Source: Candidatus Sericytochromatia bacterium (GTDB taxonomy: Bacteria > Cyanobacteriota > Sericytochromatia > S15B-MN24 > JAQBPE01). From it: 64,000 nucleotides of DNA. The stretch is taken from NCBI GenBank assembly GCA_035284745.1, contig JAYKIL010000008.1:197087-261086 (forward strand), written 5' to 3'. Under the pieces are notes generated by a model. It was not told where the DNA came from and did no database searches. It was given only the letters and a program-made list of their open reading frames with translations. Below, in pieces: positions 1 through 16,488 of the stretch. Numbering within the stretch: the first letter of the stretch is position 1; the number at the start of each line of letters is the position of its first letter. The translations under genes were made by a program, and so were the position numbers.

Positions 1-1440
1 GGACTGCGGGGGATCGACATCGAGTGGACTCAGTACGTGTGCAACCCTTGAATCTGCGCCGAGTCGCTTCGAGAATGCCAGCAAGTCGCCAAAATGCTTG
101 ATTCCCAGTGCGTAATCCTTGCGCGGGGGCGTGTCGTGCCCCAAGGGTTGCTCGAGTCTCAATATGAGATTAATGGGAGCCACCAGTCCACCCTGCCCCA
201 TAGCCTGAAGTTCCTGGAATCCTCGCTCATAGGGTAACGCCCGGGGGAGCCAAGGGACCGTGGGAAAACCGCTTTTTAACCAGGCAACGGGCGCACTGAG
301 GACTAGAATTGGAAATAAAGCCGCCAGGACGTGGCGCCACGGGCGTTTCAAAACCCAGCGACACCAAGCCTCCCAGCGCTCTTTTGGATGACGGAGCCAT
401 GGGATATCTATGGAAAACCAACGGGGCGCATCGATAAAATTACCAATGAGAGCGAGACAGGCCGGCAGCAGCGTCAGTGCGAGCGTGACGGACACCAGTG
501 CAACCAAAAACCCCCCCACTCCCATCGAGCGACTGTCCAATACGGGCGTGGCGAGTAAACCAGCGAATCCGATGGCGACCGTCAGGCCCGATATCGCAAC
601 GGCGCGCCCGGCCGTTCGGACCGTCTCTCCGACAGCCTGTTGAACGCCTTCACCTGATTTGAGGGCTTCGCGAAAACGACTCACGACCAAAAGGGCGTAG
701 TCAATTCCCAACGCAAGGCCGAGCATGGAGGCGACGCTTTGGGTGTATGTTGACAGGTCGATCTGCGGTGCCAATAGGGCCAAAAGTCCAGAAGTCAGAA
801 CAATGGAGACAATGCCCATGAACAAGGGCACGCCGGCGGCGACCAGAGACCCGAAGGCAACCAAAAGGACGGCGGCGGTGAGGGGCAGGCTTCGCGCCTC
901 GGCCCTTCCCGTGTCGATGGTGCTGAAACGGTTAATGTCATAAGTCAGTGCAGCACGCCCCGTGACATTCCAAGAAAGACCTTCCAAGGCGCGTGCGTGA
1001 TGTTCACAGATCGCGTTGACGGTCGCCCGTACACTTGCCACAGCCATCTCCGCCGAAGCCACGTCACGGGCCCGCAGCCCAACCAGCAGAAGCGCGGCGT
1101 CCGGGTCCTCACTCTTAAAAGCACGGGTTCCCGGGTCTCCCGCCTTTAACACCTGAGCCACTTGTTTGTGTCTCGTTAGCGCCTGCTGTAGCTCACTGAG
1201 CAGGCCTTGACCCGAGGGTGTCGCGAGAAGGCGCTCGGGGACGCGAAGGGTAACAACCAGAGACTGGACGAAAGGGTTTGAAAATTCGTCCGCGAGCATT
1301 CGCTCGGCGATCGAAGAAGGTGTTCCAGCAATTGCACCCGTGCCGCTTCGAAGGTGAAGCGGAAGATCTTTGGCATAGCTTGAAGCCAAGACAACGAGCA
1401 ACAACCAGAAAGAGATGACCAGAAAGCGCCATCGGGCCAT
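1..1440 (-). CDS. MMPL/RND-superfamily membrane transporter, N-terminal ~480 aa (3' end beyond window start)
   Basis: Manual translation of minus strand from ATG at 1440 is open to position 1 (frame checked codon by codon). TM1 (RWRFLVISFWLLLVVLA), large periplasmic loop, then a 5-TM bundle (LPLTAAVLLVAFGSLVAAGVPLFMGIVSIVLTSGLLAL...DYALLVVSRFRE) typical of MMPL/SSD transporters. Not in ORF track because no stop codon lies in the window. Confidence 0.65.
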   Translation of the reverse strand, partial: MARWRFLVISFWLLLVVLASSYAKDLPLHLRSGTGAIAGTPSSIAERMLADEFSNPFVQSLVVTLRVPERLLATPSGQGLLSELQQALTRHKQVAQVLKAGDPGTRAFKSEDPDAALLLVGLRARDVASAEMAVASVRATVNAICEHHARALEGLSWNVTGRAALTYDINRFSTIDTGRAEARSLPLTAAVLLVAFGSLVAAGVPLFMGIVSIVLTSGLLALLAPQIDLSTYTQSVASMLGLALGIDYALLVVSRFREALKSGEGVQQAVGETVRTAGRAVAISGLTVAIGFAGLLATPVLDSRSMGVGGFLVALVSVTLALTLLPACLALIGNFIDAPRWFSIDIPWLRHPKERWEAWCRWVLKRPWRHVLAALFPILVLSAPVAWLKSGFPTVPWLPRALPYERGFQELQAMGQGGLVAPINLILRLEQPLGHDTPPRKDYALGIKHFGDLLAFSKRLGADSRVAHVLSPLDVDPPQS

Positions 1441-1580
1441 CCATTTGCCCCAGCGGCGAAATCGCTGGAAAGAGTCAACCACCGGGTCCCTCCAACCGCC
1501 CACAAGCAAGCGACAAGGGTGCTATGATGCAGGATGTGAGGCTTTAACGTCCAGACTTTGATGCGGTTTGGGTTCTCAAT

Positions 1581-2645
1581 TTGCGCAAGAGGTTAAGGTT
1601 GCGGGCAAAAAACTGGGATGACGAGGTGGGTGTGCAAGAGCTCCCATTCGGGCGGGAGGCTCTCGGCATCCTTCTCGGGGTGACCCCCGGCGGATGGCAT
1701 TTTGACCCCGTATTGCTCTCACATTGGCTCCGTTCCGACAGCCCATTTTTCCAGTGGGGGTCGGCGTCGCTCCTCTTCGTTGAAAATGCGGCCGCCCTGC
1801 TCGTTTCTCACGATTCCAGAATGACGAAGGGGCGCCTGGTCGCTTTCTCGGCACTGCGCGTGAACGAACGATTGTCAAGCGCGGAACAGGTTTCGGTGGT
1901 CGGTCGCTTGCTTCAGGCGGCCGCGCAGTGGGGGCGATCGCGGGGCGCGGAACGATTGGGAGGGCCACTGATGCTCTCAACATGGAACCCTTACCGAGTA
2001 CTTGCGGATGACAGGCCCAATGAGACAAATGGGTTTCCCGGCGAAGGAGTCGAGCCAGCCGCCTATAACTTACTCTACCGAGCCGCTGGTTTGCAGGTCA
2101 CCGATCGCTACGTGACCACTGCGCCCCCAGAAGATCCGGATTATTGGATGTTTCATTTGGATCGTGAGGCCGGGATTTCCAGCCGGCGCGCAGGCCGTGT
2201 CGCGGTTTTGCCCTTGTCGCCAGGGGATGGTTTACGCCTGGCTCCCCAAGTCTTTGAATGGCTCAATTCCTCATTTGTTCACAACCCCTATTTTGTGGCC
2301 CTCAGCGGGGCCGAGTTTGGGGATTGGCTGATGCAGTCGATGCCCGGCGGCGTCGAACCCGTTCGCTTGGGGGCCTTTGACGGCGATGGCACAGTCCTTG
2401 GGGTCCTGGCAGGTTTCGTGGCAGAGAACCGTGGAATTTTGAAAACCGTCGCGGTCCGTCCTGATGCCCAGGGGACCCGTTGTGCCATGGCCCTGACTTT
2501 TGAGTTTCACAGGCGCCTGTTTCATCGCGGCATCACGCAGGTTCAACACGCTCTGATGCACGTGAACAATTCGTCCGCTCGCATGAGTTCGAAATATGCC
2601 CGGCCGGTTCGCCACTATGTACTCTATGGCACTCACTGCGCTTGA
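1581..2645 (+). CDS. hypothetical protein, possible tandem GNAT-fold (Fem/MprF-C-like) acyltransferase
   Basis: 354-aa ORF. The C-terminal segment (GILKTVAVRPDAQGTRCAMALTFEFHRRLFHRGITQV) resembles GNAT motif A (Q/RxxGxG/A). It is first gene of a co-directional overlapping operon. Product assignment is weak. Confidence 0.45.
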   Translation: MRKRLRLRAKNWDDEVGVQELPFGREALGILLGVTPGGWHFDPVLLSHWLRSDSPFFQWGSASLLFVENAAALLVSHDSRMTKGRLVAFSALRVNERLSSAEQVSVVGRLLQAAAQWGRSRGAERLGGPLMLSTWNPYRVLADDRPNETNGFPGEGVEPAAYNLLYRAAGLQVTDRYVTTAPPEDPDYWMFHLDREAGISSRRAGRVAVLPLSPGDGLRLAPQVFEWLNSSFVHNPYFVALSGAEFGDWLMQSMPGGVEPVRLGAFDGDGTVLGVLAGFVAENRGILKTVAVRPDAQGTRCAMALTFEFHRRLFHRGITQVQHALMHVNNSSARMSSKYARPVRHYVLYGTHCA

Positions 2646-5205
2646 GTTTAATTGTTACCAGGCCACCTTGGGAGCGTCGAAGGTTGCTCCGGAGAAGGTG
2701 GCGCTTTGGCATTTACCAGATAAAAAAAATATTGACCAAGCCGTCACTTACGGTGAATTACGCGCCGAGATACATCGAGTTGCTTTCTCGTTACGACAGA
2801 AAGGCATCGGTTACGGTGACAAGGTGTTGGTGCTTTTGCCGATGTCGCCGGCCTTGTACTCGGTGATGTTCGCCGTCGCGATGGTGGGGGCTTCGTCCGT
2901 TTTCGTGGATCCTGTCGGCGGCGCGGCGCGTTTGATGGCAGCATTGGGGGATGCGAAGCCGCGGGCCGTCTTTATTCCGACGGGCGTGGCCCGTTTCTTC
3001 CGTTTGCTACCCGGTGTTCGGGATGTTCCGTGCGTTTTTTTTGTGAACATCGACCAGTCTCTGTTTCCAGGGGTGCCCGAAGACAGAGAGATTTGCCCCG
3101 TATCGCCAGATGACGCAATTTCATTGGTCTATACCACTGGGAGTACGGGAGCCCCCAAGCCTGTGAGGCGCTCTCATTCCGATATGCTTGCGATGCTAGC
3201 GGCATTGAATCAGCATCCAGCGAAGCATTCAGAGGCGGTGGATTTGCCGATGTGGCCTAATTTGGTATTTGATGCGCTGTGCCACGGAAGAACTTGCGTC
3301 ATACCGGCCGCGACAAGTGGACGCCTCGCCCTCTCTTCTCCAGATGTCTTGATAGGGCAGATGGAGCGATGTGGTGTCACCATGTGGATTGGGCCACCGG
3401 GACCTCTGGAGAAATTACTGGATGAGTTCGAAGCTCACGGGTCCCCGAGGGCCTTGCAACACATTTTCGTGGGGGGGGCGTTGGTGCCACCGCGCGTGTT
3501 GCGTCGGGCGCAAAATTGCCTTCCCTTGGAAGGAGAGGCTGTCGCGGTCTATGGCTCGACAGAAGCCGACCCTGTGGCGACGTTATCCGCTCGTGATCTG
3601 GTCGAAACCCCTGCCCGCGTGGGGGTGCCCATTGGGCGCCTTCATCCCAATATTCGCCTGCGTTTGGTCCAGCCGGACGTCGAGGCCAGTGAATGGAGTG
3701 GTGCCAGGGATGTGGTACCCGGAGAAGTGGGAGAGATTTGGGTCACGGGTCCTCACGTGAACACCTTTTTGGAACCCTCTGACCCTGGGGGGCACTCGAC
3801 CAAGATGGTTGACCCAACAGGAGTTGTTTGGCACCGGATGGGTGATTTGGCGTGGCAGGATAACCAACAATGCCTCTTCCTCATGGGCCGTTGGGCGCAA
3901 AGGGTTCAGCTTGCGGAACGTGTCCTTGACACGATTCCCGTCGAATTGACCGCTTTGGAAGTGGCGGGGGTCAAGCGAGCAGCGCTGCTGGGACGGAATA
4001 TGGAAGCTTGGGTTGTGGTCGAGCCGACTCCCCACGCGCGCCTTCACGAAGTGCAGGAGGCCTTAATACGGGCTCTGGAGCCCTTTTCGGTGACACGGGT
4101 CGTATTCCACCCGCAAATGCCCCTGGATGCTCGCCATATGAGCCGCATCGACTTGCAAAGCTTAACGCTTGACTTGCCCGACGATCCCCCGCGCTTGCCC
4201 CCTCTCGCCTCGCCGCCCCCTTTTCTCGAGGCGCTGCGCCTGTATTTGCGCGAACGCTTTCCCCTGCTGCAGACCCTGATCGGCGTATTGCTGATGGTCG
4301 CGACCGACGGCCTGGCAACTTTGGCTCTCATAGACCAACCTCTTCATCGCGAAGTGCTGCCCCAGATGATGATTGTGGTGGCAATCTTTATCGGTGTTTT
4401 CTTTCACCTGCGGGTTTTTGATGAACACAAAGACTGGGCCGTGGATCGCGTGGCCTTCCCAGAACGTATTTTGTCGCGGGGTTGGGTGACGCTTCGTCAA
4501 TTGCGGTTTTTGGCTGCGGGAGTGATCGTCAGTGAAATTCTTTTGGCCGCCACGACCAGCCTTGTCTTATTGGGGTGGACCCTTGTTCTCATTGCCTATT
4601 CCTGGTTGATGCTGCGTGAATTTTATGTGGGAGACTGGCTCAAACGACATCTGGTGATGTATGGGGCAAGCCACATGGCGATCATCTCGCTGATGTCCCT
4701 GGCTGCTTATGGAGCCATCCTTGATGCGCTGCCCTGGTCCGTTGTGAGCCATCTAAGTGGTGCTCAAGGCTTCGATGCCACCCTTCACGGCGTTCTGCCC
4801 GCCTTGGCATCCCGGGTTTGGCACCCAGGATTATTGCTTTTTGCCGGGATGAATTTCTGTTTGATCTACTCGCTGGAGGTGGCTCGTAAGATACGCACGC
4901 CCGAATTGGAGCGTCCGCAGGTCGACACCTATTCCCGGCGATTGGGGATCCCGGGGGCTCTGGTTTTGGTGCTCGCCACACAGTGTTCTGGACTCGCCAT
5001 GTTGGCCTTGGCGTCTTCCGCCCTTCACGTTCCCTGGGGAGTATTTTTATGGGGGGGGCTCACGATAGCATTTGTCGCGGTGCGCTATGGGATGTTCTAC
5101 TTGAATCCGACCCCAGCCGCTTCAAAAAGACTTGAGGCGACAGGCGCACTCACACTGGTGAACTTGAATGTTGCCCTGATCCTTTTCTGGGGAGTTTTTC
5201 GATGA
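2596..5205 (+). CDS. adenylate-forming (AMP-binding) enzyme fused to a C-terminal polytopic membrane domain
   Basis: Adenylation core motifs present: YTTGSTGAPKPV (A3), YGSTEA (A5), WHRMGDLAW (A7). The C-terminal ~320 aa have 8 or more predicted TM helices and an Asp-rich DEHKDWAVD (DxxxDxxxD) motif. The start may be an internal ATG (2617 or 2626), since the listed start overlaps the upstream gene by 50 nt. Confidence 0.7.
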   Translation: MPGRFATMYSMALTALEFNCYQATLGASKVAPEKVALWHLPDKKNIDQAVTYGELRAEIHRVAFSLRQKGIGYGDKVLVLLPMSPALYSVMFAVAMVGASSVFVDPVGGAARLMAALGDAKPRAVFIPTGVARFFRLLPGVRDVPCVFFVNIDQSLFPGVPEDREICPVSPDDAISLVYTTGSTGAPKPVRRSHSDMLAMLAALNQHPAKHSEAVDLPMWPNLVFDALCHGRTCVIPAATSGRLALSSPDVLIGQMERCGVTMWIGPPGPLEKLLDEFEAHGSPRALQHIFVGGALVPPRVLRRAQNCLPLEGEAVAVYGSTEADPVATLSARDLVETPARVGVPIGRLHPNIRLRLVQPDVEASEWSGARDVVPGEVGEIWVTGPHVNTFLEPSDPGGHSTKMVDPTGVVWHRMGDLAWQDNQQCLFLMGRWAQRVQLAERVLDTIPVELTALEVAGVKRAALLGRNMEAWVVVEPTPHARLHEVQEALIRALEPFSVTRVVFHPQMPLDARHMSRIDLQSLTLDLPDDPPRLPPLASPPPFLEALRLYLRERFPLLQTLIGVLLMVATDGLATLALIDQPLHREVLPQMMIVVAIFIGVFFHLRVFDEHKDWAVDRVAFPERILSRGWVTLRQLRFLAAGVIVSEILLAATTSLVLLGWTLVLIAYSWLMLREFYVGDWLKRHLVMYGASHMAIISLMSLAAYGAILDALPWSVVSHLSGAQGFDATLHGVLPALASRVWHPGLLLFAGMNFCLIYSLEVARKIRTPELERPQVDTYSRRLGIPGALVLVLATQCSGLAMLALASSALHVPWGVFLWGGLTIAFVAVRYGMFYLNPTPAASKRLEATGALTLVNLNVALILFWGVFR

Positions 5206-7805
5206 CTGATGTATGGACGGCAGAATGGTTGGCCTCGTCCGCTCAGCCCGCTCTCGATGCCTCGGCCGTTCGCTGGGGGGGGAAGGGAAGAGGATTGCTT
5301 CGGCTGGTTGCAGGCGGCTTCCAGGTTCCTGAGTTTTTTATTTTAAGTTCTGACGTGATGGTGAAAGCCCAAGAAACAGGCCAACTCTGTGCGGACTTTC
5401 CGGGCCTGAAAGAAACGTTGGCGTTAGCGCTTAAAAAGCTACCCGATGCCCCCGTTGCGGTGAGGAGCAGTGCCGCTGAAGAGGACGGCGACCGTTTTTC
5501 TCTGGCGGGCCAATTCGACACTTTTTTGGGGGTTCCGAAGGATGTGGACCAGGTTGCCGACAAGGTGGTGGCCTGCTGGGTTTCGCTGCAAGGCGAGAGG
5601 GCGACTGCTTACCGACAACAGCACGGTTTGTCATCCGAACGAGCCCGGATGGCAGTGGTCGTTCAAACCATGGTGCCCGCGGAGCGCTCTGTCGTTATTT
5701 TTTCCGGAAATCCAGCCACCGGAGATGCTGATGAAGTGGTCGTCTCTTCTGTGTGGGGCCTCGGAGCAGCCCTCGTATCTGGAGACACAGAGGGTGATAC
5801 CGAAATCTTCACTCCCGACGGCTCCTTGAAGTCACGCAGTACGGGTTCTCAGGCGCGTTATCACACGCTATTGGCAGGTGGGGAGATCGCCGAGCTCGCG
5901 CTTCCCTCCGAACGATTGGGTCAACCCGTCCTGTCTCCTGCGAACCGACAAGCTGCCCGCCGCCTGGCCCGAAACATTGCGGAGCATTTCGATCGCCCCG
6001 TTGATATTGAAGCCTCTTTTCTTGGTGATACGCTGTGGGTGCTTCAGGCGCGCCCCATCACGACCCCTTTGAGCCGCCACCGTCTGTTGTGGGACAACAG
6101 CAACATTGTTGAGAGCTATGACGGGGTTACGACGCCCCTGACTTTTTCTCATGCTTGCAACGCGTATCGCCTGGTATACACGCAGTTCGGCCGATTGTTG
6201 GGCGTCCCGCGTTCGACCTATGACAGGCATGAGCGCCAAATGATGACCTACATAGGACTGCTGAATGGCCGAGTCTACTACAACTTGTTGATGTGGTATC
6301 TCTCGATGGCGCACTTACCTGGCTACGCCTTCACCAGGGGGGCGATGGAAAACATGATGGGCGTGCGAGAAAGCCTGAATGTTGAGTTGCCGGAGGCCGG
6401 GGCGCCTCTCGAAAAGTGGACGAAGGACTTTCCACGGCTTGTCTGGATGCTGCTGCGGGGTTTGTGGGCCTTCGGCACCCTTCAGGTGCGCGTGAATCGG
6501 TTTTGGAGCAATTTTGAGCATGTGTATGCCCAATGGCATCAGCACAATTTCGACACCTGGGAAACTCCCCGCCTGATGGCTCTGTACCACGAATTGGTTG
6601 TGAAAGTGTTACATCGTTGGGAGGCTCCCATTCTCACGGACGTGGGCGCGATGCTTTCAATGGCTGCTTTGCAAAAAGCTCTCAAAGCATGGGTGGCTGG
6701 CGATGATGACTGGGTAGGCCCATTGCTTGTGGCGACGGGCGATATAGAAAGCACCCGTCCGACGGAACGCTTAATGGAAATCGCAGGTTTTCTTAAAGCG
6801 TCTCCTGCTGCGCTCGCGTTATTGCAGGGCGACGACGCCGCCTTCTGGCCCGGGTTGCACAAGAACACTGAATTGACGCCCATATTAAAGATGCTTGAAG
6901 ATTGGCTGGCCTGCTATGGCGATCGCGCGATGGGGGAACTCCGGCTTGAGGCGCCTACTCCGCGCGAAGAACCTGCGATGGTCGTGCCATTATTGAGGAC
7001 TTATGTGGCTCTGGAGCAGAAACGCGGGGGTGCTGGTCCTGAATCAGCAATGGAGGCCACCCAACGTGCCGAGTCAAGGCTTCACGAGGTTTTGCAGGGT
7101 CGCCCCGTTCGAGGCTGGGTGGTTCGCTGCTTGCTGCATTGGACACGCCAGCATGTTCGCAACCGCGAGAATATGCGATTTGCCCGCACCCGTTTAACCG
7201 GGGTCCTTCGCCGATTATTCAAAGCGGTGGGGCGTGACTTGGTTCAGGTGGGGATTTTAAGGCGTCCAGACGATGTTTTTTTTCTATCGGTGGAGGAACT
7301 CACGGCGTATGTCGACGGCCGCTCAATCACTCGCGATCTGGGGGCCTTGGCCGACATGCGTCGTCGTGAATACGCCGAATATCCAGCGCAGGAACCCCCC
7401 GACCGTTTTGTAACCATCGGATTGCCTGCGGTCAAAGTTCCTGTTGCGCAAACACTCAACAGCGACGAAATGGTCCTTCAAGGAACACCCTGCTCTCCGG
7501 GCGAAGTCGAAGCCCCTATTCGGATCATTCGGCATCCCAGTGAGGGAGGGGCCTTGCAGGGAGAAATCGTGGTGGCTGCGCGCACTGATCCGGGCTGGGT
7601 TGCATTGTATCCGGCAGCAAAGGGCTTACTGGTAGAGAAAGGCAGCGTTTTGTCACATTCCGCGATTGTGGCTCGAGAGATGGGTCTTCCGACAATTGTC
7701 GGGATTCCCGGGTTATGTCAGCGCCTACGGGGGGGTGAGCGGGTACATATGGATGGGAAGACGGGTGTGGTTCGCATTGTAGACGGGGAGGGAAACAGTG
7801 TCTAA
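5202..7805 (+). CDS. PEP-utilising enzyme family phosphotransferase (PpsA/rifampin-phosphotransferase-like, three-domain)
   Basis: N-terminal PPDK-type ATP-grasp nucleotide-binding domain (RWGGKGRGLLRL). C-terminal PEP-utilizers swivel domain with catalytic His (GSVLSHSAIVAREMGLPTIVGIPG). ~400-aa central domain of unknown specificity. Start overlaps upstream stop (ATGA). Confidence 0.75.
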   Translation: MTDVWTAEWLASSAQPALDASAVRWGGKGRGLLRLVAGGFQVPEFFILSSDVMVKAQETGQLCADFPGLKETLALALKKLPDAPVAVRSSAAEEDGDRFSLAGQFDTFLGVPKDVDQVADKVVACWVSLQGERATAYRQQHGLSSERARMAVVVQTMVPAERSVVIFSGNPATGDADEVVVSSVWGLGAALVSGDTEGDTEIFTPDGSLKSRSTGSQARYHTLLAGGEIAELALPSERLGQPVLSPANRQAARRLARNIAEHFDRPVDIEASFLGDTLWVLQARPITTPLSRHRLLWDNSNIVESYDGVTTPLTFSHACNAYRLVYTQFGRLLGVPRSTYDRHERQMMTYIGLLNGRVYYNLLMWYLSMAHLPGYAFTRGAMENMMGVRESLNVELPEAGAPLEKWTKDFPRLVWMLLRGLWAFGTLQVRVNRFWSNFEHVYAQWHQHNFDTWETPRLMALYHELVVKVLHRWEAPILTDVGAMLSMAALQKALKAWVAGDDDWVGPLLVATGDIESTRPTERLMEIAGFLKASPAALALLQGDDAAFWPGLHKNTELTPILKMLEDWLACYGDRAMGELRLEAPTPREEPAMVVPLLRTYVALEQKRGGAGPESAMEATQRAESRLHEVLQGRPVRGWVVRCLLHWTRQHVRNRENMRFARTRLTGVLRRLFKAVGRDLVQVGILRRPDDVFFLSVEELTAYVDGRSITRDLGALADMRRREYAEYPAQEPPDRFVTIGLPAVKVPVAQTLNSDEMVLQGTPCSPGEVEAPIRIIRHPSEGGALQGEIVVAARTDPGWVALYPAAKGLLVEKGSVLSHSAIVAREMGLPTIVGIPGLCQRLRGGERVHMDGKTGVVRIVDGEGNSV

Positions 7806-8757
7806 CGCGCTCATTGATACCGCTATTTTGCATCGTCAGGCTTCAGCCCGCCCCCTGGACCTTGACAGTTTACCGTGGGCCGATGGCGTGAATCCGGAAA
7901 ATTGGTTTGCTCCGGAGTCGATGACTCACTTACTTCAGAGTCCGAGCTATCGCCATTTCAATGAAACAGAGAAGAAGCTGTATGCCCGTACCGTTGCCTT
8001 CGCCAAGGCAGAGTTGTTCATCTATTTTGAAGAGCACCTGTTGGCCCCGGTGATACAACGACTGATTTCAGAGCCCCAGCGATTCAGTATCGAACCCGGG
8101 CTTCTTTCTTGCCTTCGCGACTTTCACCGGGAGGAGTTACAACACACCGAGATGTTCTGGCGCCTGCTCGAAACCGCTGCGCCGGAACTTTATCCGACGC
8201 GAAATCTTCGTATTTACCGCAGTTATTTTAGCCTCAAACTGCTGCCGGGTGCCCTTCGCCAGTTCCCTGATACTTTAATACTTTGGGTCTGGCTTGCGAT
8301 GTTCATCGAGGAACTGACGGTCGACCTGTACCGGCAGTATCGACAAGACGACCGGGTTGAACCACTTTTTGAGGCCGTCTATCAGGCCCATATGATGGAT
8401 GAAATGCGTCACGTGTCGATTGACCACCACGTTCTGGAGGCACTCTGGGATACTGCTCCGCGCTGGCTGCGCGTGATGAATGTTGGCCTTCTCGATCACA
8501 TCGTATCAAAGGTGACCTCTCCCGTAGCGGCTCCCCGTGCGGCGATCGAAGAGGTATTGCTGCATTCGCCTCATTTATGGAACCATCGGGATGAGTTTTT
8601 TCGCGATATCGCCGCCTTGGGGCAAAATATGGCGTATCAGGAGGCCCACTATTCCCGGGAGACCTTGCCTCGCACCTTTGGATTGTTGGATCGATATCCT
8701 GAGATGCGGGCACTTCGTAAGGGGTTTCCAGCCTATCGCCCGCGATCACTCGCGTGA
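7798..8757 (+). CDS. ferritin-like diiron-carboxylate oxygenase (AurF / acyl-ACP-desaturase-like)
   Basis: Two E...ExxH half-sites (FEEHLL...REELQHTEMF and FIEELTV...DEMRHVSIDHH) arranged as in four-helix-bundle diiron enzymes. 8-nt overlap with the upstream gene. Confidence 0.5.
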   Translation: MSNALIDTAILHRQASARPLDLDSLPWADGVNPENWFAPESMTHLLQSPSYRHFNETEKKLYARTVAFAKAELFIYFEEHLLAPVIQRLISEPQRFSIEPGLLSCLRDFHREELQHTEMFWRLLETAAPELYPTRNLRIYRSYFSLKLLPGALRQFPDTLILWVWLAMFIEELTVDLYRQYRQDDRVEPLFEAVYQAHMMDEMRHVSIDHHVLEALWDTAPRWLRVMNVGLLDHIVSKVTSPVAAPRAAIEEVLLHSPHLWNHRDEFFRDIAALGQNMAYQEAHYSRETLPRTFGLLDRYPEMRALRKGFPAYRPRSLA

Positions 8758-8779: not shown

Positions 8780-9898
8780 GTGCCGTCGCCCCCCTTTGCC
8801 GATGAAAATAGCCTGGCCGCACAGCCGTTCTTTCGAGAGATTGGGTATTCATCGTGCTGGGAGGATCCGGTTGTTTTGCGCCAGGCACTGGCTGTTCGCT
8901 CGGGAGACTGTGTGCTGTCGATTGCATCGGGCGGATGCAATGTATTGAGCCTGTTGCTCGACGATCCAGCGTCCATTTTATGTGTCGATTTAAACCCTCA
9001 TCAACTGACGCTGTTACGCCTCAAGATAGCGGCCATTCGACAACTAGAATACTCTGAACTGCTTGAATTGTTGGGGGTTCGCGTATCAAGCCGTCGGATT
9101 GAACTCCTTGATACACTGTTCCCAGAATTGCCTTTGGCCGATCGAGAATATTGGAGGGCACGTCGACGACAGATTGCTCAGGGACTGTATCGCACGGGTC
9201 GCACCGATCGATATTTGATGGCTTTTGGCACCCTTGTAAGGACCTTGTTTGGCCAGAGCAAAGTCAAGCAGTTTTTTGGTTTCGCCGAACTGGACGCGCA
9301 GATTGAATTTTACCGCTCGCATTGGGATGGATGGCGTTGGCGCAAGCTGTTCGAGGTTTTCTTCCACCGCCAAATTATCTCCCGCGCCAAGGACCCCAGC
9401 CATTTTCGCTATGTTGAGTTTGATCGATTCGGGGAGAGGATCTACGCCCGCGTGGAGCGTTTATTCACCACCGGCCTTGTGCGCGAAAATTACTTTTTGG
9501 GCCTCATCATGTTGGGGCACTACGCCTCCGAGACTGCGCTGCCGCCATACCTTTTGGAAAACAATCTTCCACTGGTGCGCGCACGCCTCGATCGCTTGAT
9601 TCTTCGCCACGCCAGCCTTTCAGCGGTCCTGGAACCCGTGGGACCGGCGCGCTTCGATGCGTTTAATTTGTCTAATTTGTACGACTGGCTCAGTGACGAC
9701 GCGCGGATCGCCTCCCTGAGACAGGCATCAATGGCCGCCACACCAGGCGCCCGTTGGTGCTACTGGAGTACACTGGAGCCGCGCCTGGCCCCTGTACTAG
9801 AGGGCGTGGACCTCCAGCCGGAACGCTCATGCGAGCTCGCGTATGCCGATAGGTTTCCCTATGCACACTTTGAAACCGGTACTTTTTTTGCTCAATGA
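8780..9898 (+). CDS. BtaA-like (DUF3419) S-adenosylmethionine-dependent 3-amino-3-carboxypropyl transferase
   Basis: N-terminal IGYSSCWEDP motif and SIASGGCN Rossmann-like segment recall the betaine-lipid synthase BtaA / DUF3419 family. ~370 aa size fits. Confidence 0.55.
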   Translation: MPSPPFADENSLAAQPFFREIGYSSCWEDPVVLRQALAVRSGDCVLSIASGGCNVLSLLLDDPASILCVDLNPHQLTLLRLKIAAIRQLEYSELLELLGVRVSSRRIELLDTLFPELPLADREYWRARRRQIAQGLYRTGRTDRYLMAFGTLVRTLFGQSKVKQFFGFAELDAQIEFYRSHWDGWRWRKLFEVFFHRQIISRAKDPSHFRYVEFDRFGERIYARVERLFTTGLVRENYFLGLIMLGHYASETALPPYLLENNLPLVRARLDRLILRHASLSAVLEPVGPARFDAFNLSNLYDWLSDDARIASLRQASMAATPGARWCYWSTLEPRLAPVLEGVDLQPERSCELAYADRFPYAHFETGTFFAQ

Positions 9899-9905
9899 CT
9901 CGTGC

Positions 9906-10862
9906 TCAAGCGGACGGGGATACCACTCGCAAGCCCGCAGGGATCACCGCTATCTCAAGGGTTTCTGCCCGGGCCAGGGGCTCACCGTCGGCCATAAAGG
10001 ATAACGGTTCATCCCCAACGAGGGTAAATGTTTTCCCTTCCCCCAATTCAACTTCCTCGGCCCCTTCGTGAGCCCCTGCCCGGTTTAATAGGGCTGCAAT
10101 CCAGAGGCTTCTCGCACGCGTCCGCCAATCAATGCGACAGTACCCCAATGAACCGTCGAATTGCCGGGTGTGGGGACACGATGTCACGGTTCGGCCGATG
10201 AACGGTTGGTTTTGAATAAACAGGGCCAAAATAACGCTTTGAACCCTATCTCGCCCATCGACACATAGTGTGACAGTCTGTGGGATTTTCGCTGCACTCA
10301 GCACGAGCCAACCACTAAAGAGGGGATAGGCCGCGCTTCCCAAGGCCCGGGTGAAAGCGCCTAGCAATCCGCTGCGGCTTTTTAGCGCATGCACCCCTTC
10401 TGCGACGTCATTGACAATTCCAATGCCCCCCCCTGTTAAAAAATAACGACCATTGACGCGCCCCACATCAATCGTTCGAATTTCGCCGTTCAGGATTGCC
10501 CGACAGCTTTCCCGTGGGGTCAAGGGAATTTTCAGTGCTCGGGCCAAGTCATTCGCAGTTCCGGCAGGGATGATCCCCAGAGCAGTTTCAGTATTGACGA
10601 GTTGATTGGCGACGACGTTGAGAGAGCCATCTCCTCCCACGACGACGACGACATCCACCCCCTCAACAACAGATTCCCGGGCCACCCGACGCATCGCGTC
10701 GAGTGATCCGGGAACAACGACCTCGTGATCGGTGCCATCAAAAGCAGCCCGCACGATTCCAAGCCAACGCCTGTCGGCCCCATTGCGTGCCGCATGATTG
10801 ACCAAAATGCGGTATCGCGTCGGGGAACTCAAGGCCTCGTTAGTTGTAATAGCCGAATCCAA
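9906..10862 (-). CDS. diacylglycerol-kinase-family lipid kinase (YegS/BmrU/DgkB-like)
   Basis: DAGK_cat signature VVVVGGDGSLNVVANQL and GIIPAGTANDLARAL. Convergent with the plus-strand operon; translationally overlapped by the upstream OMP gene. Confidence 0.75.
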   Translation of the reverse strand: MDSAITTNEALSSPTRYRILVNHAARNGADRRWLGIVRAAFDGTDHEVVVPGSLDAMRRVARESVVEGVDVVVVVGGDGSLNVVANQLVNTETALGIIPAGTANDLARALKIPLTPRESCRAILNGEIRTIDVGRVNGRYFLTGGGIGIVNDVAEGVHALKSRSGLLGAFTRALGSAAYPLFSGWLVLSAAKIPQTVTLCVDGRDRVQSVILALFIQNQPFIGRTVTSCPHTRQFDGSLGYCRIDWRTRARSLWIAALLNRAGAHEGAEEVELGEGKTFTLVGDEPLSFMADGEPLARAETLEIAVIPAGLRVVSPSA

Positions 10863-11565
10863 TCAAGCCCACGTCGACATTCGTGTCCATCGAGCTGACG
10901 TAGTTTAACCAAAGATAAGCATTTTCGTTAAACAAATACTTGGCCCCAGCACCCCAGCGGCGATCCGGGGCCGTCGCCATGTTGCCCAGATTCCAGTTGT
11001 ACTGACCGTTCGCGCCCACTGAAATTCGATCATTCACCCAAAGATCGGCCCCGAGGGCTGCAGCCCCTCGAAACCCACCATTCATCAAATAACCCACCTC
11101 AGGTTGCGCGGTGAGTTCCAAGCCCCCGAATTTCAACAGCAATGAATTTTTGTAGGTAGCCCCGTAGTCCATCGCGCCACCCGGGGCTAAGTTGAATCGA
11201 CCGATATAGGCACCGCCCCACGACCATCCATTTCCCGCCGCATAGCGCTGCCTCAGTCCTATTTGGCTCTCTGCTGACAGTAAAACCGCCCAGTTTAGAC
11301 CATCGTCGATCGCGCCGCCTGCGCCCGCCAAACCAAAGGGCAAGGTGGGAGCCTGGGTGTTCAAACGCTGATTGAGAAGGCCCCCCGCCACGCCAAACTC
11401 GTTATGTCCAACTCCGAGATAGACCGGCGAGTAGACCAAACCACCCGCGGAAATAATTCGGGCCGGCGAAGTTACAATGGCGTCATCGGCAGCAGCCTGC
11501 GCTGGAGTGATGAAAGCGGGAAAGGTCATCAGTGCGCACGCAACCGCCAGCAGTTTTTTCTTCAT
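10840..11565 (-). CDS. outer-membrane beta-barrel protein with signal peptide
   Basis: Signal peptide MKKKLLAVACALMTFPAFITPAQAAADD. Gly/aromatic-rich alternating pattern to the C-terminus (GLIGFGYYN). Start is 23 nt inside the kinase gene's upstream neighbour overlap. Confidence 0.55.
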   Translation of the reverse strand: MKKKLLAVACALMTFPAFITPAQAAADDAIVTSPARIISAGGLVYSPVYLGVGHNEFGVAGGLLNQRLNTQAPTLPFGLAGAGGAIDDGLNWAVLLSAESQIGLRQRYAAGNGWSWGGAYIGRFNLAPGGAMDYGATYKNSLLLKFGGLELTAQPEVGYLMNGGFRGAAALGADLWVNDRISVGANGQYNWNLGNMATAPDRRWGAGAKYLFNENAYLWLNYVSSMDTNVDVGLIGFGYYN

Positions 11566-12373: not shown

Positions 12374-13327
12374 TCAGTTGTCGTTGGCTGCCAATTGGAT
12401 GTGCCGACGAACCGATAACAGGCTTCCCACCGCCCCGAGGGCAATGCCCAAGACCGTAAGAACGGCGAGGGTTTCAGCAAGGGCGAATGGCTCTAGGCTC
12501 ATTGGAATGAATGGAAAGAGTTCCTGCCATTTTGTCAGCGTAAATGAACGCCACGCAATGAGGACGACAGAGGTCAAGATCGCTCCAAATAGGCCAAATA
12601 AAATTCCCTCAAGCAAAAAAGGCCACGCGATGAATGAATTGCTGGCACCCACCAGGTGCATTATCTCTATTTCGCGCCGACGCGCCATGACCGTTAAGCG
12701 GATGGTATTCATAATCACCGCCAAGCTCGCCAAAGCCAGAATCGCACCAATTCCAAGTCCGGCTGCGCGAATGAAGGCCGAAAATTCTGACAGCTTCTTA
12801 AGTAATTCGGCCCCGTATTGAATGTCCTCAATGCCCGGCATTTTTGCGATACGCTCAGCCAAGACGGGCGTTAGATCAGGACTCTTTGATTGAACGGTAA
12901 AGCTATTCGGCAACGGGTTCGCGTCGAGTAAAGAGTCAAAGGTCATGCGCGAACGCATATCCTGTTGCATGTCTTTCCACGCTTGGTCTTTGGTAATTAA
13001 CTTGAGGCTTTCAACCTCAGGAAATTCTTTGATAGCGGTTTCGATGCCACGGGGGTCCGCATCGTCCGACAAAAAAACGGCGATTGGAACTTTACCCCCG
13101 ACCTGATAGCTGACGCGGTGTAGGTCTTGAACGATCAACCAAAACCCACCCAGTATACTGAGGCTCACGGCAATGGTCGCAACGACCAGCCAACTCATCA
13201 GGGCCGAACGCGCCATGCTGGACAGCGCCTCGTGACTGACAAATTCGGCAATCCTTAAAAAGGTTTTAATTGACTCCAACAGAATAAACCCCGCGTGCTT
13301 GGTCTTGGACCAGTTTTCCACCATCAA
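12374..13327 (-). CDS. ftsX: cell-division ABC transporter permease FtsX
   Basis: 317 aa. N-terminal cytoplasmic segment, large periplasmic loop, three C-terminal TMs. Overlaps and is co-oriented with ftsE. Confidence 0.8.
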   Translation of the reverse strand: MMVENWSKTKHAGFILLESIKTFLRIAEFVSHEALSSMARSALMSWLVVATIAVSLSILGGFWLIVQDLHRVSYQVGGKVPIAVFLSDDADPRGIETAIKEFPEVESLKLITKDQAWKDMQQDMRSRMTFDSLLDANPLPNSFTVQSKSPDLTPVLAERIAKMPGIEDIQYGAELLKKLSEFSAFIRAAGLGIGAILALASLAVIMNTIRLTVMARRREIEIMHLVGASNSFIAWPFLLEGILFGLFGAILTSVVLIAWRSFTLTKWQELFPFIPMSLEPFALAETLAVLTVLGIALGAVGSLLSVRRHIQLAANDN

Positions 13328-13955
13328 TGGTAAGAACTCTGCGCCTCATGTTGTCAACGACCAGTTTATTGTGGGTGGCCACCACCACCGTCGTTCCGTG
13401 CAAATTTATCTTGGTTAGCAAGCGCATAATATCCCATGAGGTTTCCGGGTCGAGGTTGCCCGTTGGTTCATCAGCGATGAGCAGTGGAGGAGTATTTACG
13501 ATGGCCCGCGCCAGGCAAACGCGTTGTTGCTGGCCTCCTGACAACTCGGTCGGCAAAGCATCGGCGTAATCTCTGAGGCCGACCAGATCTAAACTGCTCC
13601 GCACGCGGTGTTGCATCTCTGCTTTGCCAGTTCCAATGATCCGCAACGCGAAGGCCACGTTATCATAAACACAGCGGTCCATGAGTAATTTGTAATCTTG
13701 AAAGACGACCCCAATGCGCTGGCGCAGTTGAGGCAGGTTGCGCGAAGAGATTTGCCCAATATCGACGCCGCTGATGATCACCTGGCCCGTCGTCGGTGTT
13801 TCGGCCCGATACAGCAGCTTCATGAGTGTCGATTTCCCGGCGCCCGAGGGGCCGACGATAAAGACGAACTCCCCTTGCTGAACCTCTAAATTCAGGCCGT
13901 GCAACGCCCGGACTCCGTTAGGATAAAGTTTGGTCACTTGCCTGAGACTGATCAC
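13266..13955 (-). CDS. ftsE: cell-division ATP-binding protein FtsE
   Basis: Walker A GPSGAGKST, ABC signature LSGGQQQRV, Walker B LLIADEPTGNLD. 229 aa. Confidence 0.9.
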   Translation of the reverse strand: MISLRQVTKLYPNGVRALHGLNLEVQQGEFVFIVGPSGAGKSTLMKLLYRAETPTTGQVIISGVDIGQISSRNLPQLRQRIGVVFQDYKLLMDRCVYDNVAFALRIIGTGKAEMQHRVRSSLDLVGLRDYADALPTELSGGQQQRVCLARAIVNTPPLLIADEPTGNLDPETSWDIMRLLTKINLHGTTVVVATHNKLVVDNMRRRVLTIDGGKLVQDQARGVYSVGVN

Positions 13956-14749
13956 GGCTTTTCCTCCACCCTCTGGGTGTTGCTATTCTGGGTCAGCACT
14001 CGATAAACGAATGGCGGCAATGTGGAGCGCATACGCTTCATACGCCACGGTTCTTGAATTAATCGGTATAACCATTCTAAATGTAAGCGTTGAAAGGTGG
14101 CAGGTGCCCGGCGCACTCTGCCAGCAAAAACGTCAAGAGATCCTCCGACGCCGATTGCGATGGTGGCCTGCAATTCGTTTCTATGGCGTTCAATCCACTT
14201 TTCCTGGCGGGGAACCCCAAGCGCCACCAATAGAATGTCTGGGCGAGCGGCCTTTATCTTATCCAGAAGGTCTGGTTCATCTTCGGGGCTGAAGAAGCCG
14301 TGATGACAGCCTGTGATCTGTAAGCCTGAATACCTTTGCTGCAACGCAACCGCAGCGGCCTCAGCGACCCCCGGCTTTCCTCCCAGTAGATAGAGCCGAT
14401 GGCCGGTTTGTGCGATGCGTGCGACCAGGGCCTGCACCAGATCGACCCCTGCCACTTTCACAACACGAGGGCCACTCTGTTGCCGCGCGATGGCCCACAC
14501 CACACCAATGCCATCAGGGGTTACCAGCGACGCTCGCTTTATGATATCCCCCAAATCTGCGTCCTCCAGAGCTTGTATCGCCATCTCAGCGTTCATGGTC
14601 ACGACGTGAAATATTTCAGGACACTCCGTTTTTCTGTTCTGCAGAAAATTCATCAGGCAACTGCAAGCCTCTTCGAGGCTTAAAGCATCAACGGGAAGGC
14701 CGAGAACATTTGCTCGTTTCGTTTCAGGTGGCACGAGACCTCCTTGCAA
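13952..14749 (-). CDS. tagA: WecB/TagA/CpsF-family glycosyltransferase (N-acetylmannosaminyltransferase-like, GT26)
   Basis: 265 aa. GLPVDALSLEE...HVVTMNAEM...PDGIGVVWA pattern of GT26 family. Confidence 0.7.
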   Translation of the reverse strand: MQGGLVPPETKRANVLGLPVDALSLEEACSCLMNFLQNRKTECPEIFHVVTMNAEMAIQALEDADLGDIIKRASLVTPDGIGVVWAIARQQSGPRVVKVAGVDLVQALVARIAQTGHRLYLLGGKPGVAEAAAVALQQRYSGLQITGCHHGFFSPEDEPDLLDKIKAARPDILLVALGVPRQEKWIERHRNELQATIAIGVGGSLDVFAGRVRRAPATFQRLHLEWLYRLIQEPWRMKRMRSTLPPFVYRVLTQNSNTQRVEEKP

Positions 14750-15956
14750 TATCCACCGCCAATTGGGAGTTTTTCATTGCCGCTTCAGTCCAAGCAGCTC
14801 TCAACGATTGTAAATGACTTCGTAAGGCGCCCCGCCGAGCCCACGCCTGATGCAAGGCGGATTGAAGTTCTGCGCTGTCTGCTAACGATTCAACCGATGG
14901 AATGGTGGGCAGGTTCGCAAGACGGGCGAATGCCTCGATTTTGGGATCGTAAATGATGCCAATGGCCGGCGTGGAAGCCGCGGCAGCCATGATCAAGGCG
15001 TGTAGCCGCATTCCAATGAGAAGGTCAACGCGCCCCAAGACTCCCAGCATTTCCTTGGCAGTGAGCGCCTGTTTCGCCATTACCACGACTGGTTTTTGGC
15101 CTTCTGGGCGCGCGGCCAGGCAATGTGACAACTCCTCGAGAAGCCAATCGTCCCCCGGTTTGTGAAACGGAAGCAGGAGAATCTGAGCATCCCAAGCCCG
15201 AGCGCATTGCGCCAGAACAGCAGAAAACGCCTTCAGTTGCTTCTCCAGCCACGCGGGCCACGGGCGGATGGACACGGCGACCACCGGTCGGACACGGTTA
15301 AGGCCCCACTGTTCCCACAGTGCGTCTGTCAGGTCAGCCGCCTGTGGTTTGGATGCGAGAACGGGATCGACCGTTAAGGATATCTCTTTGGAGCGAAGGC
15401 CGCATTCAATGAGTAAGTCTCGAGAGGCCGGGTCGCGAACCGTGATGGAATCGACACGGGATAGGACACCACCCACCATTCGACGACTCCAAAACGACTT
15501 CAAAGGCCCTACGCCTTGGGCAAAAACCATACGGGGAACGCCAGCCAGTCTCGCCAGTTCCAGAATGCCCAGATAGTATGGGACAGAGGCAGGCCCCGTC
15601 ACATCTTGAAGTAAACTGCCGCCGCCACTTATCAACAGGTCAGCACGGCGCAACGCTTGCCAAATTAATGGCGGCGAGACTCTTGAGACGTAATGTAGGC
15701 GAGGATCGTGCTGACTCTTAACGGCTTGCCCCAGTGCGATCACTTCTAGGTCCGATTCGATGGCCCAAAGTTGCTCGCAAACAGCCTCTAGAATGGCTTC
15801 GTCACCCAGGTTATGAAACCCAAAGTAACCGGAAATGACGATCCTGAGGGTTTTCTTTTCAGCGGAGAAACTCGCCATCGGGCGCTTGCTCTTTTCTTTT
15901 CGGGCCCTATCGTGGACTCTAGTGGTTCTTATTTTGCTGATCGATGGCCCAGCCAA
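14724..15956 (-). CDS. csaB: polysaccharide pyruvyl transferase CsaB
   Basis: N-terminus LRIVISGYFGFHNLGDEAILEA is the CsaB/pyruvyl-transferase hallmark. 410 aa. Sits immediately upstream of tagA as in SCWP pyruvylation loci. Confidence 0.8.
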   Translation of the reverse strand: MAGPSISKIRTTRVHDRARKEKSKRPMASFSAEKKTLRIVISGYFGFHNLGDEAILEAVCEQLWAIESDLEVIALGQAVKSQHDPRLHYVSRVSPPLIWQALRRADLLISGGGSLLQDVTGPASVPYYLGILELARLAGVPRMVFAQGVGPLKSFWSRRMVGGVLSRVDSITVRDPASRDLLIECGLRSKEISLTVDPVLASKPQAADLTDALWEQWGLNRVRPVVAVSIRPWPAWLEKQLKAFSAVLAQCARAWDAQILLLPFHKPGDDWLLEELSHCLAARPEGQKPVVVMAKQALTAKEMLGVLGRVDLLIGMRLHALIMAAAASTPAIGIIYDPKIEAFARLANLPTIPSVESLADSAELQSALHQAWARRGALRSHLQSLRAAWTEAAMKNSQLAVDIARRSRAT

Positions 15957-16383: not shown

Positions 16384-16488
16384 CGAAACCTCTCAGCTGC
16401 CTCTCAATAGACGGAGAACCGTGTCATTCTAGGCGCTGCGGAGGCTTGCGTCAACGGGTTTCGCGACGCAACGGCACATGCGGCCACG

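Follow-up and report, generated by a model that had tools for sequence, protein, structure and literature searches.

A 64,000-nucleotide window of the Candidatus Sericytochromatia assembly GCA_035284745.1 (contig JAYKIL010000008.1, positions 197,087 to 261,086) carries, at 2596..5205 of its forward strand (stop codon included), a gene for an 869-aa protein in which an adenylate-forming (ANL) ligase is joined to a divergent UbiA-like membrane domain. Two catalytic modules are held together at the cytoplasmic face of the membrane, and many of the other genes in their conserved operon encode enzymes that handle lipids and phosphate. We are highly confident of the identity of both domains and of their functional coupling. 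The best overall explanation appears to be a bifunctional inner-membrane enzyme, part of a cassette that makes a membrane isoprenoid or lipid conjugate; we favor it tentatively, just short of calling it probable.

The gene is a single, unbroken open reading frame (ORF) of 869 codons with an ATG start, and the assignment draws on this intact frame, on full-length homologues and on AlphaFold2 models. At its start it overlaps the 3′ end of the ORF at 1581-2645, and at its stop the first codon of the next gene, which begins at 5202 (ATGA); overlapping ends on both sides are the usual signs of an operon.

The membrane domain (aa 535-869; 4198..5202, + strand) consists of an amphipathic N-terminal helix and nine transmembrane (TM) helices and was assigned using AlphaFold2, Foldseek and NCBIfam. 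The model of the C-terminal 335 aa, built from a 58-sequence alignment, has a predicted local distance difference test (pLDDT) score of 92.7 and a predicted template modelling (pTM) score of 0.90. It contains nine long hydrophobic helices plus short cap helices and loops, in line with an earlier note on this DNA, made from the sequence alone, that had counted eight or more. When the model was compared with the PDB using Foldseek, the top 15 matches were all UbiA-superfamily enzymes (best E 6e-6, probability 1.00). They are led by ApUbiA (4od4/4od5; TM-scores to 4od5 0.60/0.72), DGGGP synthase (6m31/7bpu), AfUbiA (4tq3/4tq4) and the membrane phosphoribosyltransferase (PRTase) 8j8j, with UBIAD1 further down. 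The resemblance to UbiA-type transferases that the earlier note had guessed at is therefore borne out by structure prediction and fold search, and a transporter fold such as MFS finds no match, transporter structures appearing only at E > 0.6 and TM-score < 0.27.

Sequence searches place the domain at a greater distance. The isolated C-terminal domain has no Pfam match at E ≤ 10, PF01040 included (gathering score 34.2 bits), and a PDB sequence search with it gave one chance match only, so the fold is established by modelling. Two NCBIfam prenyltransferase models score 58.7 bits (cutoff 443) and 43.5 bits (cutoff 239). Relatives of the domain do reach Pfam UbiA (P0194, 52.6 bits; P0131, 47.7; P0146, 39.4; cutoff 34.2), and in a second search most relatives carried a precomputed PF01040 match, and their source annotations read "UbiA family prenyltransferase" or "4-hydroxybenzoate polyprenyltransferase". 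Because the window domain lacks a PF01040 match while its relatives reach one, its sequence points to UbiA membership at the superfamily level, via intermediates. An exhaustive HMMER scan of 1.84 billion representatives retrieved 1436 relatives of the membrane domain at E ≤ 1e-3, of which 755 pass E ≤ 1e-10; stand-alone proteins of ~300 aa make up the majority.

The first Asp-rich motif of UbiA enzymes is retained. It lies in the region HLRVFDEHKDWAVDRVAFPERILSRG (aa 604-629; 4405..4482, +), which was delimited by profile alignment to 6m31 and by hhalign against a canonical UbiA set. Here R-V-F-D-E-H-K-D-x-x-x-D-x4-P-x-R-x-L-x-x-G is aligned with N-V-I-N-D-I-F-D-I-E-I-D-R-I-N-K-P-S-R-P-L-P-S-G of the DGGGP synthase 6m31, so that D609, E610, D613, D617 and R624 occupy the canonical N, D, D, D and R. 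The same register is obtained against the E. coli/Ap/Mj/Af set using hhalign, with the substitutions N→D and D→E. By this alignment, D613 and D617 are the predicted metal-binding pair and R624 the predicted RPL arginine. The earlier note had read the stretch DEHKDWAVD (aa 609-617) as a DxxxDxxxD metal motif at a cytoplasmic helix end. Its UbiA-type character and its position, at the end of TM2, stand; the register does not, since it is (D)E-x-x-D-x-x-x-D and not three equivalent Asp residues at i, i+4 and i+8. D609, D613 and D617 are invariant in the 58-sequence family alignment, far beyond chance, and E610 and R624 are likewise unchanged in the family alignments. Nearly every one of the 150 best family representatives has the pattern x-D-E-x-K/R-D-x-x-x-D.

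The second motif, in contrast to the first, has been remodelled. Based on global profile–profile hhalign against six canonical sequences (E. coli UbiA, MenA and CyoE plus ApUbiA, MjDGGGPS and AfUbiA, as printed sequences; 95.5% probability, E 5e-9), the corresponding region is YSLEVARKIRTPELERPQVDTYSRRLG (aa 758-784; 4867..4947, +), at the end of TM6 and in loop 6-7. This register supersedes two other attempts: with E. coli UbiA as the only target, hhalign of the family profile reached just 1.3% probability, too little to use, and MAFFT --add --keeplength left the placement of the second motif ambiguous. E761 falls on EcUbiA D184/ApUbiA D175, R764 on Y187/Y178, and T768 and L771 on EcUbiA D191 and D195 of the canonical DxxxD. 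The second DxxxD of the TM6-7 loop is absent in the global profile alignment; its first Asp position has no acidic equivalent, and E772 might stand in place of the second, given a one-residue alignment uncertainty. In its stead is an invariant block, E761-V-A-R-K-I-R-T-P-E-L-E772 (E-x-x-R-K-x-R-x-P-E-x-E...D-T-Y), in which E761, R764, K765, P769 and E772 are invariant in the family alignments. In ApUbiA, the diphosphate and two Mg2+ are enclosed by D54, D58, R63, R67, Y115, K119, D182 and D186, the residues close to C1 of the prenyl chain include N50, D175 and Y178, and the second DxxxD is needed for the second Mg2+ in solved UbiA enzymes (PMC11047366). The loss of the second Asp pair together with the change of the C1-proximal Tyr to Arg is a real departure from every UbiA structure available for comparison.

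Both active-site faces are cytoplasmic. The loops of the membrane domain carry 11 Lys/Arg residues inside and 3 outside, which by the positive-inside rule gives an N-in topology, also demanded by the cytoplasmic ligase; the TM2-3 and TM6-7 loops are then on the cytoplasmic face, the same side as the ligase. The full-length model of the fusion has a pLDDT of 93.6 and a pTM of 0.90, based on an alignment of 109 sequences in which N-only and C-only homologues were correctly placed. The Pro-rich linker between the domains (aa ~525-545, LPDDPPRLP...; 4168..4230, +) is kept in five fused relatives and has pLDDT values of 93-98 in this model. The full-length pTM and the ordered linker imply that the ligase is packed on the membrane domain in a defined manner, in a predicted interface informed by only ~15 fused sequences.

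The N-terminal ligase (aa 1-534; 2596..4197, +) was assigned from Pfam, NCBIfam, motifs and Foldseek and is of the OleC or "fatty acid CoA ligase family" type. The ANL superfamily proposed in the earlier note is confirmed here: Pfam AMP-binding matches aa 30-388 (E 7e-50, 170.4 bits against a cutoff of 29.9), and the core motifs are all present, namely A3 TTGSTGAPK (aa 180-188; the P-loop, found by motif search at 3133..3159, +), A5 YGSTE (319), A7 HRMGD (413), A8 GRWAQRV (431) and A10 PLDARHMSR (aa 509-517; 4120..4146, +). The A10 block has the OleC-type signature P-x-D-x-R-H-N-S/A-K, with Arg517 for the usual Lys. Codon 517 (4144-4146) encodes Arg in the window protein and in 3 of its 4 close fused relatives and Lys in most of the family; across the 52 sequences that contain the ligase, this position is Lys in 43, Arg in 8 and Thr in 1. 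We assume that the Arg517 form is competent for adenylation. Both domains of the fusion are intact, with the expected folds and motifs, and both modules are apparently catalytically competent.

Among curated models, the best NCBIfam match of the ligase is NF006754 (295 bits, cutoff 478), followed by the OleC models at 191 bits (cutoff 900) and 124 bits (cutoff 850). Membership of NF006754/PRK09274 is thus not established, although this remains the nearest family, and the OleC equivalog cutoffs (NF045786, NF045785) are missed. The stand-alone ligases of related loci score 356-410 bits against NF006754, likewise below the cutoff. By sequence the nearest solved structures are adenylation domains of nonribosomal peptide synthetases. 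The full-length model shows the ANL fold, with its large N-subdomain and small C-subdomain, and in Foldseek the ligase part superposes best on adenylation-state structures of McbA, MatB-ATP and CytC1-ATP (root-mean-square deviation 3.2-4.1 Å, TMt 0.81-0.85) and poorly on thioester-state structures (10-11 Å). McbA, an amide-bond synthetase, is the best structural match. AMP-binding is the sole domain found by a Pfam scan of the fusion protein, which has no PlsC-type acyltransferase domain, and no carrier-protein (PP-binding) gene occurs in any of the annotated genomic contexts. The fusion protein is a superfamily-level member of both ANL and UbiA.

Fusion of the two modules is recurrent. In 5.8 billion clustered proteins there are only five close full-length homologues (50-55% identity), all of them fused with the linker conserved, and two are named Candidatus Sericytochromatia. 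Cluster representative P0001, listed as 100% identical to the fusion protein, differs from it (SVFVDP/SVLVDP, CPVSP/CAVSP, ARVGV/ARMGV); the window sequence is a close strain variant of the Logan-assembly contig of P0001, not identical to it. The exhaustive search retrieved ten more distant fused proteins of 820-873 aa, with AMP-binding followed by the membrane domain. In a neighbor-joining tree of 129 membrane domains, a rough tree without support values, fused forms fall in at least 5-6 clades and are interleaved with unfused ones. Thus, we conclude that the ligase/UbiA-like fusion arose repeatedly.

A scan of one genome per species identified 282 genomes that encode a relative of the membrane domain. 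To count the genes around it we used the best 80 loci (~12 phyla), in which six-frame ORFs were compared using phmmer and DUF3419 was counted within 9 kb. The two modules are fused in 3 of the 80, two Sericytochromatia and the planctomycete Ca. Uabimicrobium. Unfused ligase and UbiA-like genes lie adjacent in Planctomycetota (L005), Lentisphaerota (L006), a Thermoanaerobaculia-type contig (L007) and another lineage (L008); the stand-alone UbiA-like protein of L005 is 32% identical to the window domain (E 3e-28). In L008 an ORF of 129 aa (7525-7914), without a significant family match, stands between the stand-alone ligase and the UbiA-like gene, where the fusion has its linker. The fusion protein is the joined version of two neighboring cassette genes and not a stand-alone oddity.

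The cassette itself is conserved well beyond these two genes. The UbiA-like gene has an Rph-type phosphotransferase as its neighbor in 74 of the 80 loci and the ligase in 70. Next in frequency are DUF3419 (39) and a ~450-aa membrane protein (38), followed by the HMG-CoA-reductase (HMGR) family (19), MMPL (7), an AurF-like protein (6) and a DAGK_cat kinase (5). A GNAT-like gene is present in at least 30 of the 80 loci; counting weaker matches that likewise stand upstream of the ligase, in the corresponding position, brings this to more than half. The recurring gene order is [HMGR - DUF3419 - 450-aa] - GNAT - ligase - UbiA-like - Rph-like, and most loci that lack a partner end at a contig edge. 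The HMGR-family protein that we scored reaches 312 bits, against a cutoff of 442 for HMG-CoA reductase.

The ~450-aa partner (for example L006 3969-5318, L016 4966-6312 and 21 others in alignment A5) is not in the window. It is a polytopic membrane protein with the conserved block LAVADAFAALIGSRYG...KSLEGS and without a Pfam, NCBIfam or PDB profile match. Its relatives are named "diacylglycerol/polyprenol kinase family protein" by NCBI, "phytol kinase" by JGI and "dolichol kinase" by UniRef, and distant relatives are fused to DUF92. We take it to be a putative kinase from these annotations and from a resemblance in motifs, there being no HMM match. It seems to represent a large kinase-like family that present-day HMM libraries fail to pick up.

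Two flavors of the cassette can be distinguished. One, with AurF-like, MMPL and DAGK_cat genes, is limited to Sericytochromatia-like and Fibrobacterota loci among those compared (L012-L091). The other, found in most other phyla, has the polyprenol-kinase-like protein and DUF3419, often with an HMGR-like gene. Within the AurF flavor, a polyprenol-kinase-like gene occurs only in L015 and an HMGR-like gene in the Fibrobacterota loci L027 and L055. The two flavors may be the aerobic and anaerobic versions of one pathway. Since, L015 apart, loci with AurF, MMPL and DAGK_cat lack a polyprenol-kinase-like gene, the DAGK_cat kinase of the window plausibly fills that role.

In the window, the fusion gene is preceded by a GNAT-like acyl-CoA N-acyltransferase of 354 aa (1581..2645, +), with a family-specific N-terminal half and a C-terminal GNAT region that has weak Pfam GNAT matches. 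It shares 31% identity (E 9e-21) with the GNAT that precedes the stand-alone ligase in L003, and its profile matches generic acyl-CoA N-acetyltransferase structures (for example 3tt2, E 3e-5). Enzymes of the Pat/AcuA type acetylate the A10 Lys of ligases. Such a regulatory role is unlikely for this GNAT, since this lineage keeps the gene although its A10 residue is Arg. Further upstream and divergent from the cassette, the N-terminal ~480 residues of an MMPL-family transporter are cut by the left edge of the window (1..1521, − strand; phmmer against the L001 MMPL, E 8.5e-143), and the gene at this position is annotated PF03176 MMPL in two Sericytochromatia metagenome-assembled genomes (L001, L002).

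Downstream is a phosphoenolpyruvate (PEP)-synthase-family phosphotransferase of Rph/PigC architecture (5202..7805, +; 867 aa; PPDK_N at aa 76-288, C-terminal PEP-utilizers at aa 786-855). It scores 737 bits against NF004881 and 250-275 bits against the Rph, PigC and RedH models. The His motif of the swivel domain, GSVLSHSAIVARE, is present, and a Pfam scan of the protein found no PEP/pyruvate-binding barrel. With the His motif kept and the barrel missing, its most likely reaction is that of Rph and PigC, phosphorylation of a hydroxyl (or phosphate), here on a substrate that is a small molecule or a lipid. The following genes encode an AurF-family di-iron oxygenase-like protein (7798..8757, +; 319 aa; Pfam AurF E 5.7e-16, 58.9 bits against a cutoff of 29.6), a DUF3419 protein (8780..9898, +; 372 aa; E 7.5e-68) and, convergently, a YegS/DAGK_cat-type lipid kinase (9906..10862, −; 318 aa; Pfam DAGK_cat and YegS_C; TIGR00147 119.7 bits against a cutoff of 118.65). 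After the kinase comes a conserved 241-aa protein (10840..11565, −) with no Pfam or NCBIfam match. An unannotated gene of 237-239 aa holds the same position in L001 and L002, and a sequence match was found in L012 and in none of the other loci. The order in the two Sericytochromatia genomes and the window is accordingly divergent MMPL, ~350-aa protein, fusion, PPDK_N/Rph_4th/PEP-utilizers, AurF-like, DUF3419, convergent DAGK_cat and ~240-aa protein; the position of the lipid kinase is conserved in the Sericytochromatia loci.

The rest of the window (12374-17649 and 31396-63814) contains FtsX, a polysaccharide pyruvyl transferase, an AI-2E transporter, MurJ, a PBP transpeptidase, a Mur ligase and IleRS. 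These housekeeping genes indicate that the cassette is chromosomal and not on an obvious mobile element. A second, unrelated AMP-binding enzyme of 604 aa, with AMP-binding and AMP-binding_C_3 domains (36110-37924, −) as is typical of long-chain acyl-CoA synthetases, is only weakly similar to the fusion ligase (E 2e-6). A 716-aa signaling protein with GAF and HD-GYP-type (HD_5) domains is encoded at 40511-42661 (+).

How the two modules might work together can be proposed from the company they keep. A polyprenol/diacylglycerol-type kinase, a second phosphotransferase and a UbiA-type transferase would suggest, by analogy with phytol salvage, that a lipid alcohol is activated and then transferred. 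The ligase, GNAT, DUF3419 and AurF-like proteins suggest a polar partner with a carboxyl and an amine. In the scheme that we favor, a lipid alcohol would be phosphorylated by the lipid kinase and the Rph-type phosphotransferase to a lipid phosphate or diphosphate, which the UbiA-like domain would bind through its first Asp-rich motif, with Mg2+, and through the new Arg/Lys cluster. The domain would move the lipid group onto a polar partner that bears a carboxyl. The fused ligase would then adenylate this carboxyl at the membrane surface for joining to an amine or hydroxyl, which would fit the GNAT and amine-directed enzymes of the cassette, and the fusion would stop the hydrophobic intermediate from escaping the membrane after the first step. 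We put forward this particular sequence of reactions, lipid-(di)phosphate-dependent transfer plus carboxyl activation of the same molecule, more tentatively than the bifunctional enzyme as such.

The first Asp-rich motif and the RPL-type Arg, both retained in register, support the scheme. Several observations weigh against it. The canonical second DxxxD is missing from the membrane domain. R764 takes the place of a Tyr near C1 of the prenyl donor, which is awkward for a carbocation mechanism; such a site could handle an anionic or carbonyl center. The A10 residue of the window protein is Arg and not Lys. HMGR-like genes are found in only 19 of the 80 loci, and the one scored does not reach the cutoff for HMG-CoA reductase. 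In sequence the ligase comes closest to OleC and in structure to amide-bond synthetases, to which a hand-over of the adenylate fits equally well; OleC uses a hydroxyl nucleophile and no CoA. Lastly, the order of the steps is pure inference.

In the main rival, which sharpens the proposal of the earlier note that an acyl- or aminoacyl-adenylate is delivered to an acceptor site in the membrane, the adenylate would be handed over directly. The ligase adenylate would then be the electrophile and AMP the leaving group, and the UbiA-fold cavity would hold a polyprenyl phosphate or lipid hydroxyl as nucleophile, the product being an acyl- or aminoacyl-lipid or an acyl-phospholipid carrier. We regard this as possible but doubtful. 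It would make sense of the recurrent fusion and the tight predicted packing of the two modules, and a site that has lost the second Asp motif, with the invariant R764/K765/R767 near the prenyl C1, is better suited to an oxyanion or phosphate than to a carbocation. The nearest relatives of the ligase are enzymes whose adenylate goes to a non-thiol nucleophile (OleC by sequence, McbA-type by structure), no carrier protein is encoded nearby in the annotated contexts, and one of the fold matches, the UbiA-fold PRTase 8j8j/8j8k, takes a lipid phosphate as acceptor. However, the near-universal Rph-type phosphotransferase would be left without an obvious role, the diphosphate-binding first Asp motif and RPL Arg of canonical enzymes are strictly retained, and ANL enzymes normally bury their adenylate. 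We know of no acyltransferase in the UbiA superfamily. Slightly more doubtful is the particular form in which this family has turned the UbiA fold to the transfer of acyl or aminoacyl groups, with AMP replacing diphosphate, onto the polyprenyl phosphate of the cassette kinase or a lipid alcohol. If true, an acyl-transferring UbiA fold would mean a previously unknown lipid-linked acyl carrier or lipid class in at least 282 bacterial species. The two phosphotransferases of the cassette suit a lipid-(di)phosphate donor for the UbiA-like site slightly better than they suit direct hand-over.

In a longer chain from acid to alkyl donor, the ligase would activate an isoprenoid or fatty acid, the HMGR-like protein would reduce the thioester to the alcohol, the phosphotransferases would make the (di)phosphate and the UbiA-like domain would use it as alkyl donor. 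Ligase, HMGR-like, polyprenol-kinase-like, Rph-like and UbiA-like genes do share one operon at many loci, and the divergence of the HMGR-like protein (312 vs 442 bits) makes another thioester substrate conceivable. But the HMGR-like gene is missing from the window and from 61 of the 80 loci, a chain of five steps would not explain why its first enzyme is fused to its last, and OleC-type ligases are not known to make CoA thioesters. We consider this chain improbable.

Still less probable is an OleC-like reaction, in which the ligase makes a β-lactone from a β-hydroxy acid and the membrane domain, replacing OleB, opens the ring or decarboxylates it to an alkene. It is suggested by the OleC models, which are the second-best NCBIfam matches, by the A10 signature P-x-D-x-R-H-N-S/A-K, common to N-only relatives of which several are named olefin β-lactone synthetase by their sources, and by OleB-OleC fusions among the ligase relatives (P0065, P0071, P0093). 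Scores far under the OleC cutoffs (191 vs 900, 124 vs 850) argue against it, and the kinases, GNAT and DUF3419 are left unexplained. A probe for OleB (the N-terminal 300 aa of the OleBC fusion P0065) has no match in the window or the 80 loci, which indicates that the cassette is not an olefin pathway; no thiolase or SDR (OleA/OleD-type) Pfam families are present in the annotated cassette contexts, OleA and OleD not having been probed by sequence. A route from mevalonate to isoprenoids via a β-lactone was also considered and finds weak support, with HMGR-like genes in 19 of the 80 loci and none in the window.

Negligible, finally, is the chance of an artefact, a sequencing frameshift that joins two genes or a transporter domain with a chance acidic motif: although the parts are separate adjacent genes in most genomes, so that an assembly error could in principle fuse them, the in-frame fusion with its Pro-rich linker recurs in five independent assemblies (50-55% identity) and in ten more distant proteins, which disposes of the frameshift that the earlier note had allowed for, and the fold and family-invariant motif residues of the membrane domain are of UbiA and not of transporter type.

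Both halves of the fusion protein come from well-studied superfamilies. No paper that we found describes the obligate pairing of the two, the remodelling of the UbiA active site or the cassette of seven to eight genes, and literature searches on the fusion, the cassette or lipids of this lineage gave nothing relevant. The cassette occurs in at least 282 species-level genomes from ~12 phyla, mostly uncultured, including Acidobacteriota, Planctomycetota, Lentisphaerota, Verrucomicrobiota and Sericytochromatia. Given this breadth, it probably specifies a widespread, unrecognized membrane lipid or lipid-linked metabolite. The natural fusions offer a ready single polypeptide for biochemistry and structure, and they make the role of a UbiA fold without the second Asp-rich motif directly testable.

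Of known systems that combine an ANL enzyme with a membrane protein, Aas unites a PlsC acyltransferase with an acyl-ACP synthetase, and FAAL fusions and DltA/DltB are further examples. As in these, an adenylating enzyme would deliver an activated acyl group at the membrane. The fusion differs from them, as the earlier note had anticipated for Aas and FAAL fusions, in that its membrane partner has the UbiA fold and not PlsC or MBOAT, with no acyltransferase domain in the Pfam scan and no carrier-protein gene in the annotated contexts. The proposed chemistry has a parallel in XimB/XimA (xiamenmycin) and CloQ/CloL (clorobiocin), where prenylation of an acid is followed by ANL-type amide formation. 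Prenyl transfer to an acid and ANL activation of a carboxyl are shared with our scheme, and the best match of the ligase model is McbA. These are, however, separate proteins in secondary-metabolite clusters of actinomycetes, and their aromatic acid substrate has no support for the fusion. The ebo/Ubi-297 operon was rejected as a match, being a different UbiA-containing operon.

Plants and cyanobacteria salvage phytol with VTE5 phytol kinase and VTE6 phytyl-phosphate kinase, followed by a UbiA-type (homogentisate) phytyltransferase. The cassette resembles this pathway in having a kinase that sources name polyprenol or phytol kinase beside a UbiA-superfamily transferase and a second phosphotransferase. 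It differs in that the second phosphotransferase is an Rph/PigC-type PEP-synthase homologue and not DUF92/VTE6, the kinase of the window is DAGK_cat, the active site of the transferase is non-canonical, and ligase, GNAT and DUF3419 have been added. With the rifampicin phosphotransferase Rph and the prodigiosin-condensing enzymes PigC/RedH, the neighboring phosphotransferase shares the ATP-grasp, Rph_4th and C-terminal swivel His domains and the intact His motif, but it scores 250-355 bits against cutoffs of 999-1350 and lies in another genomic context.

OleC and NF006754/PRK09274 are the best curated models for the ligase and share with it the A10 block and the lack of a nearby carrier protein; unlike them, the window ligase is below every curated cutoff, is fused or adjacent to a membrane transferase and lacks an OleB partner, both in the window and across the 80 loci. 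With ApUbiA/EcUbiA and archaeal DGGGP synthase the membrane domain shares the nine-helix fold and the cytoplasmic motif loops, and its D/E-x-x-D-x-x-x-D...P-x-R-x-L-x-x-G is in register with their first motif and Arg. In contrast to these enzymes, it has no Pfam UbiA match, its second DxxxD is replaced and the Tyr near the prenyl C1 is Arg; its family has a specific LM-x-EF...WLKRH...Y...H block and, in addition to the fusion with the ligase, is obligately partnered in the genome by an ANL ligase and a phosphotransferase of the Rph type. It represents an uncharacterized UbiA subfamily whose active site has been remodelled and whose genes are tied to those of an OleC-like ligase and this phosphotransferase.

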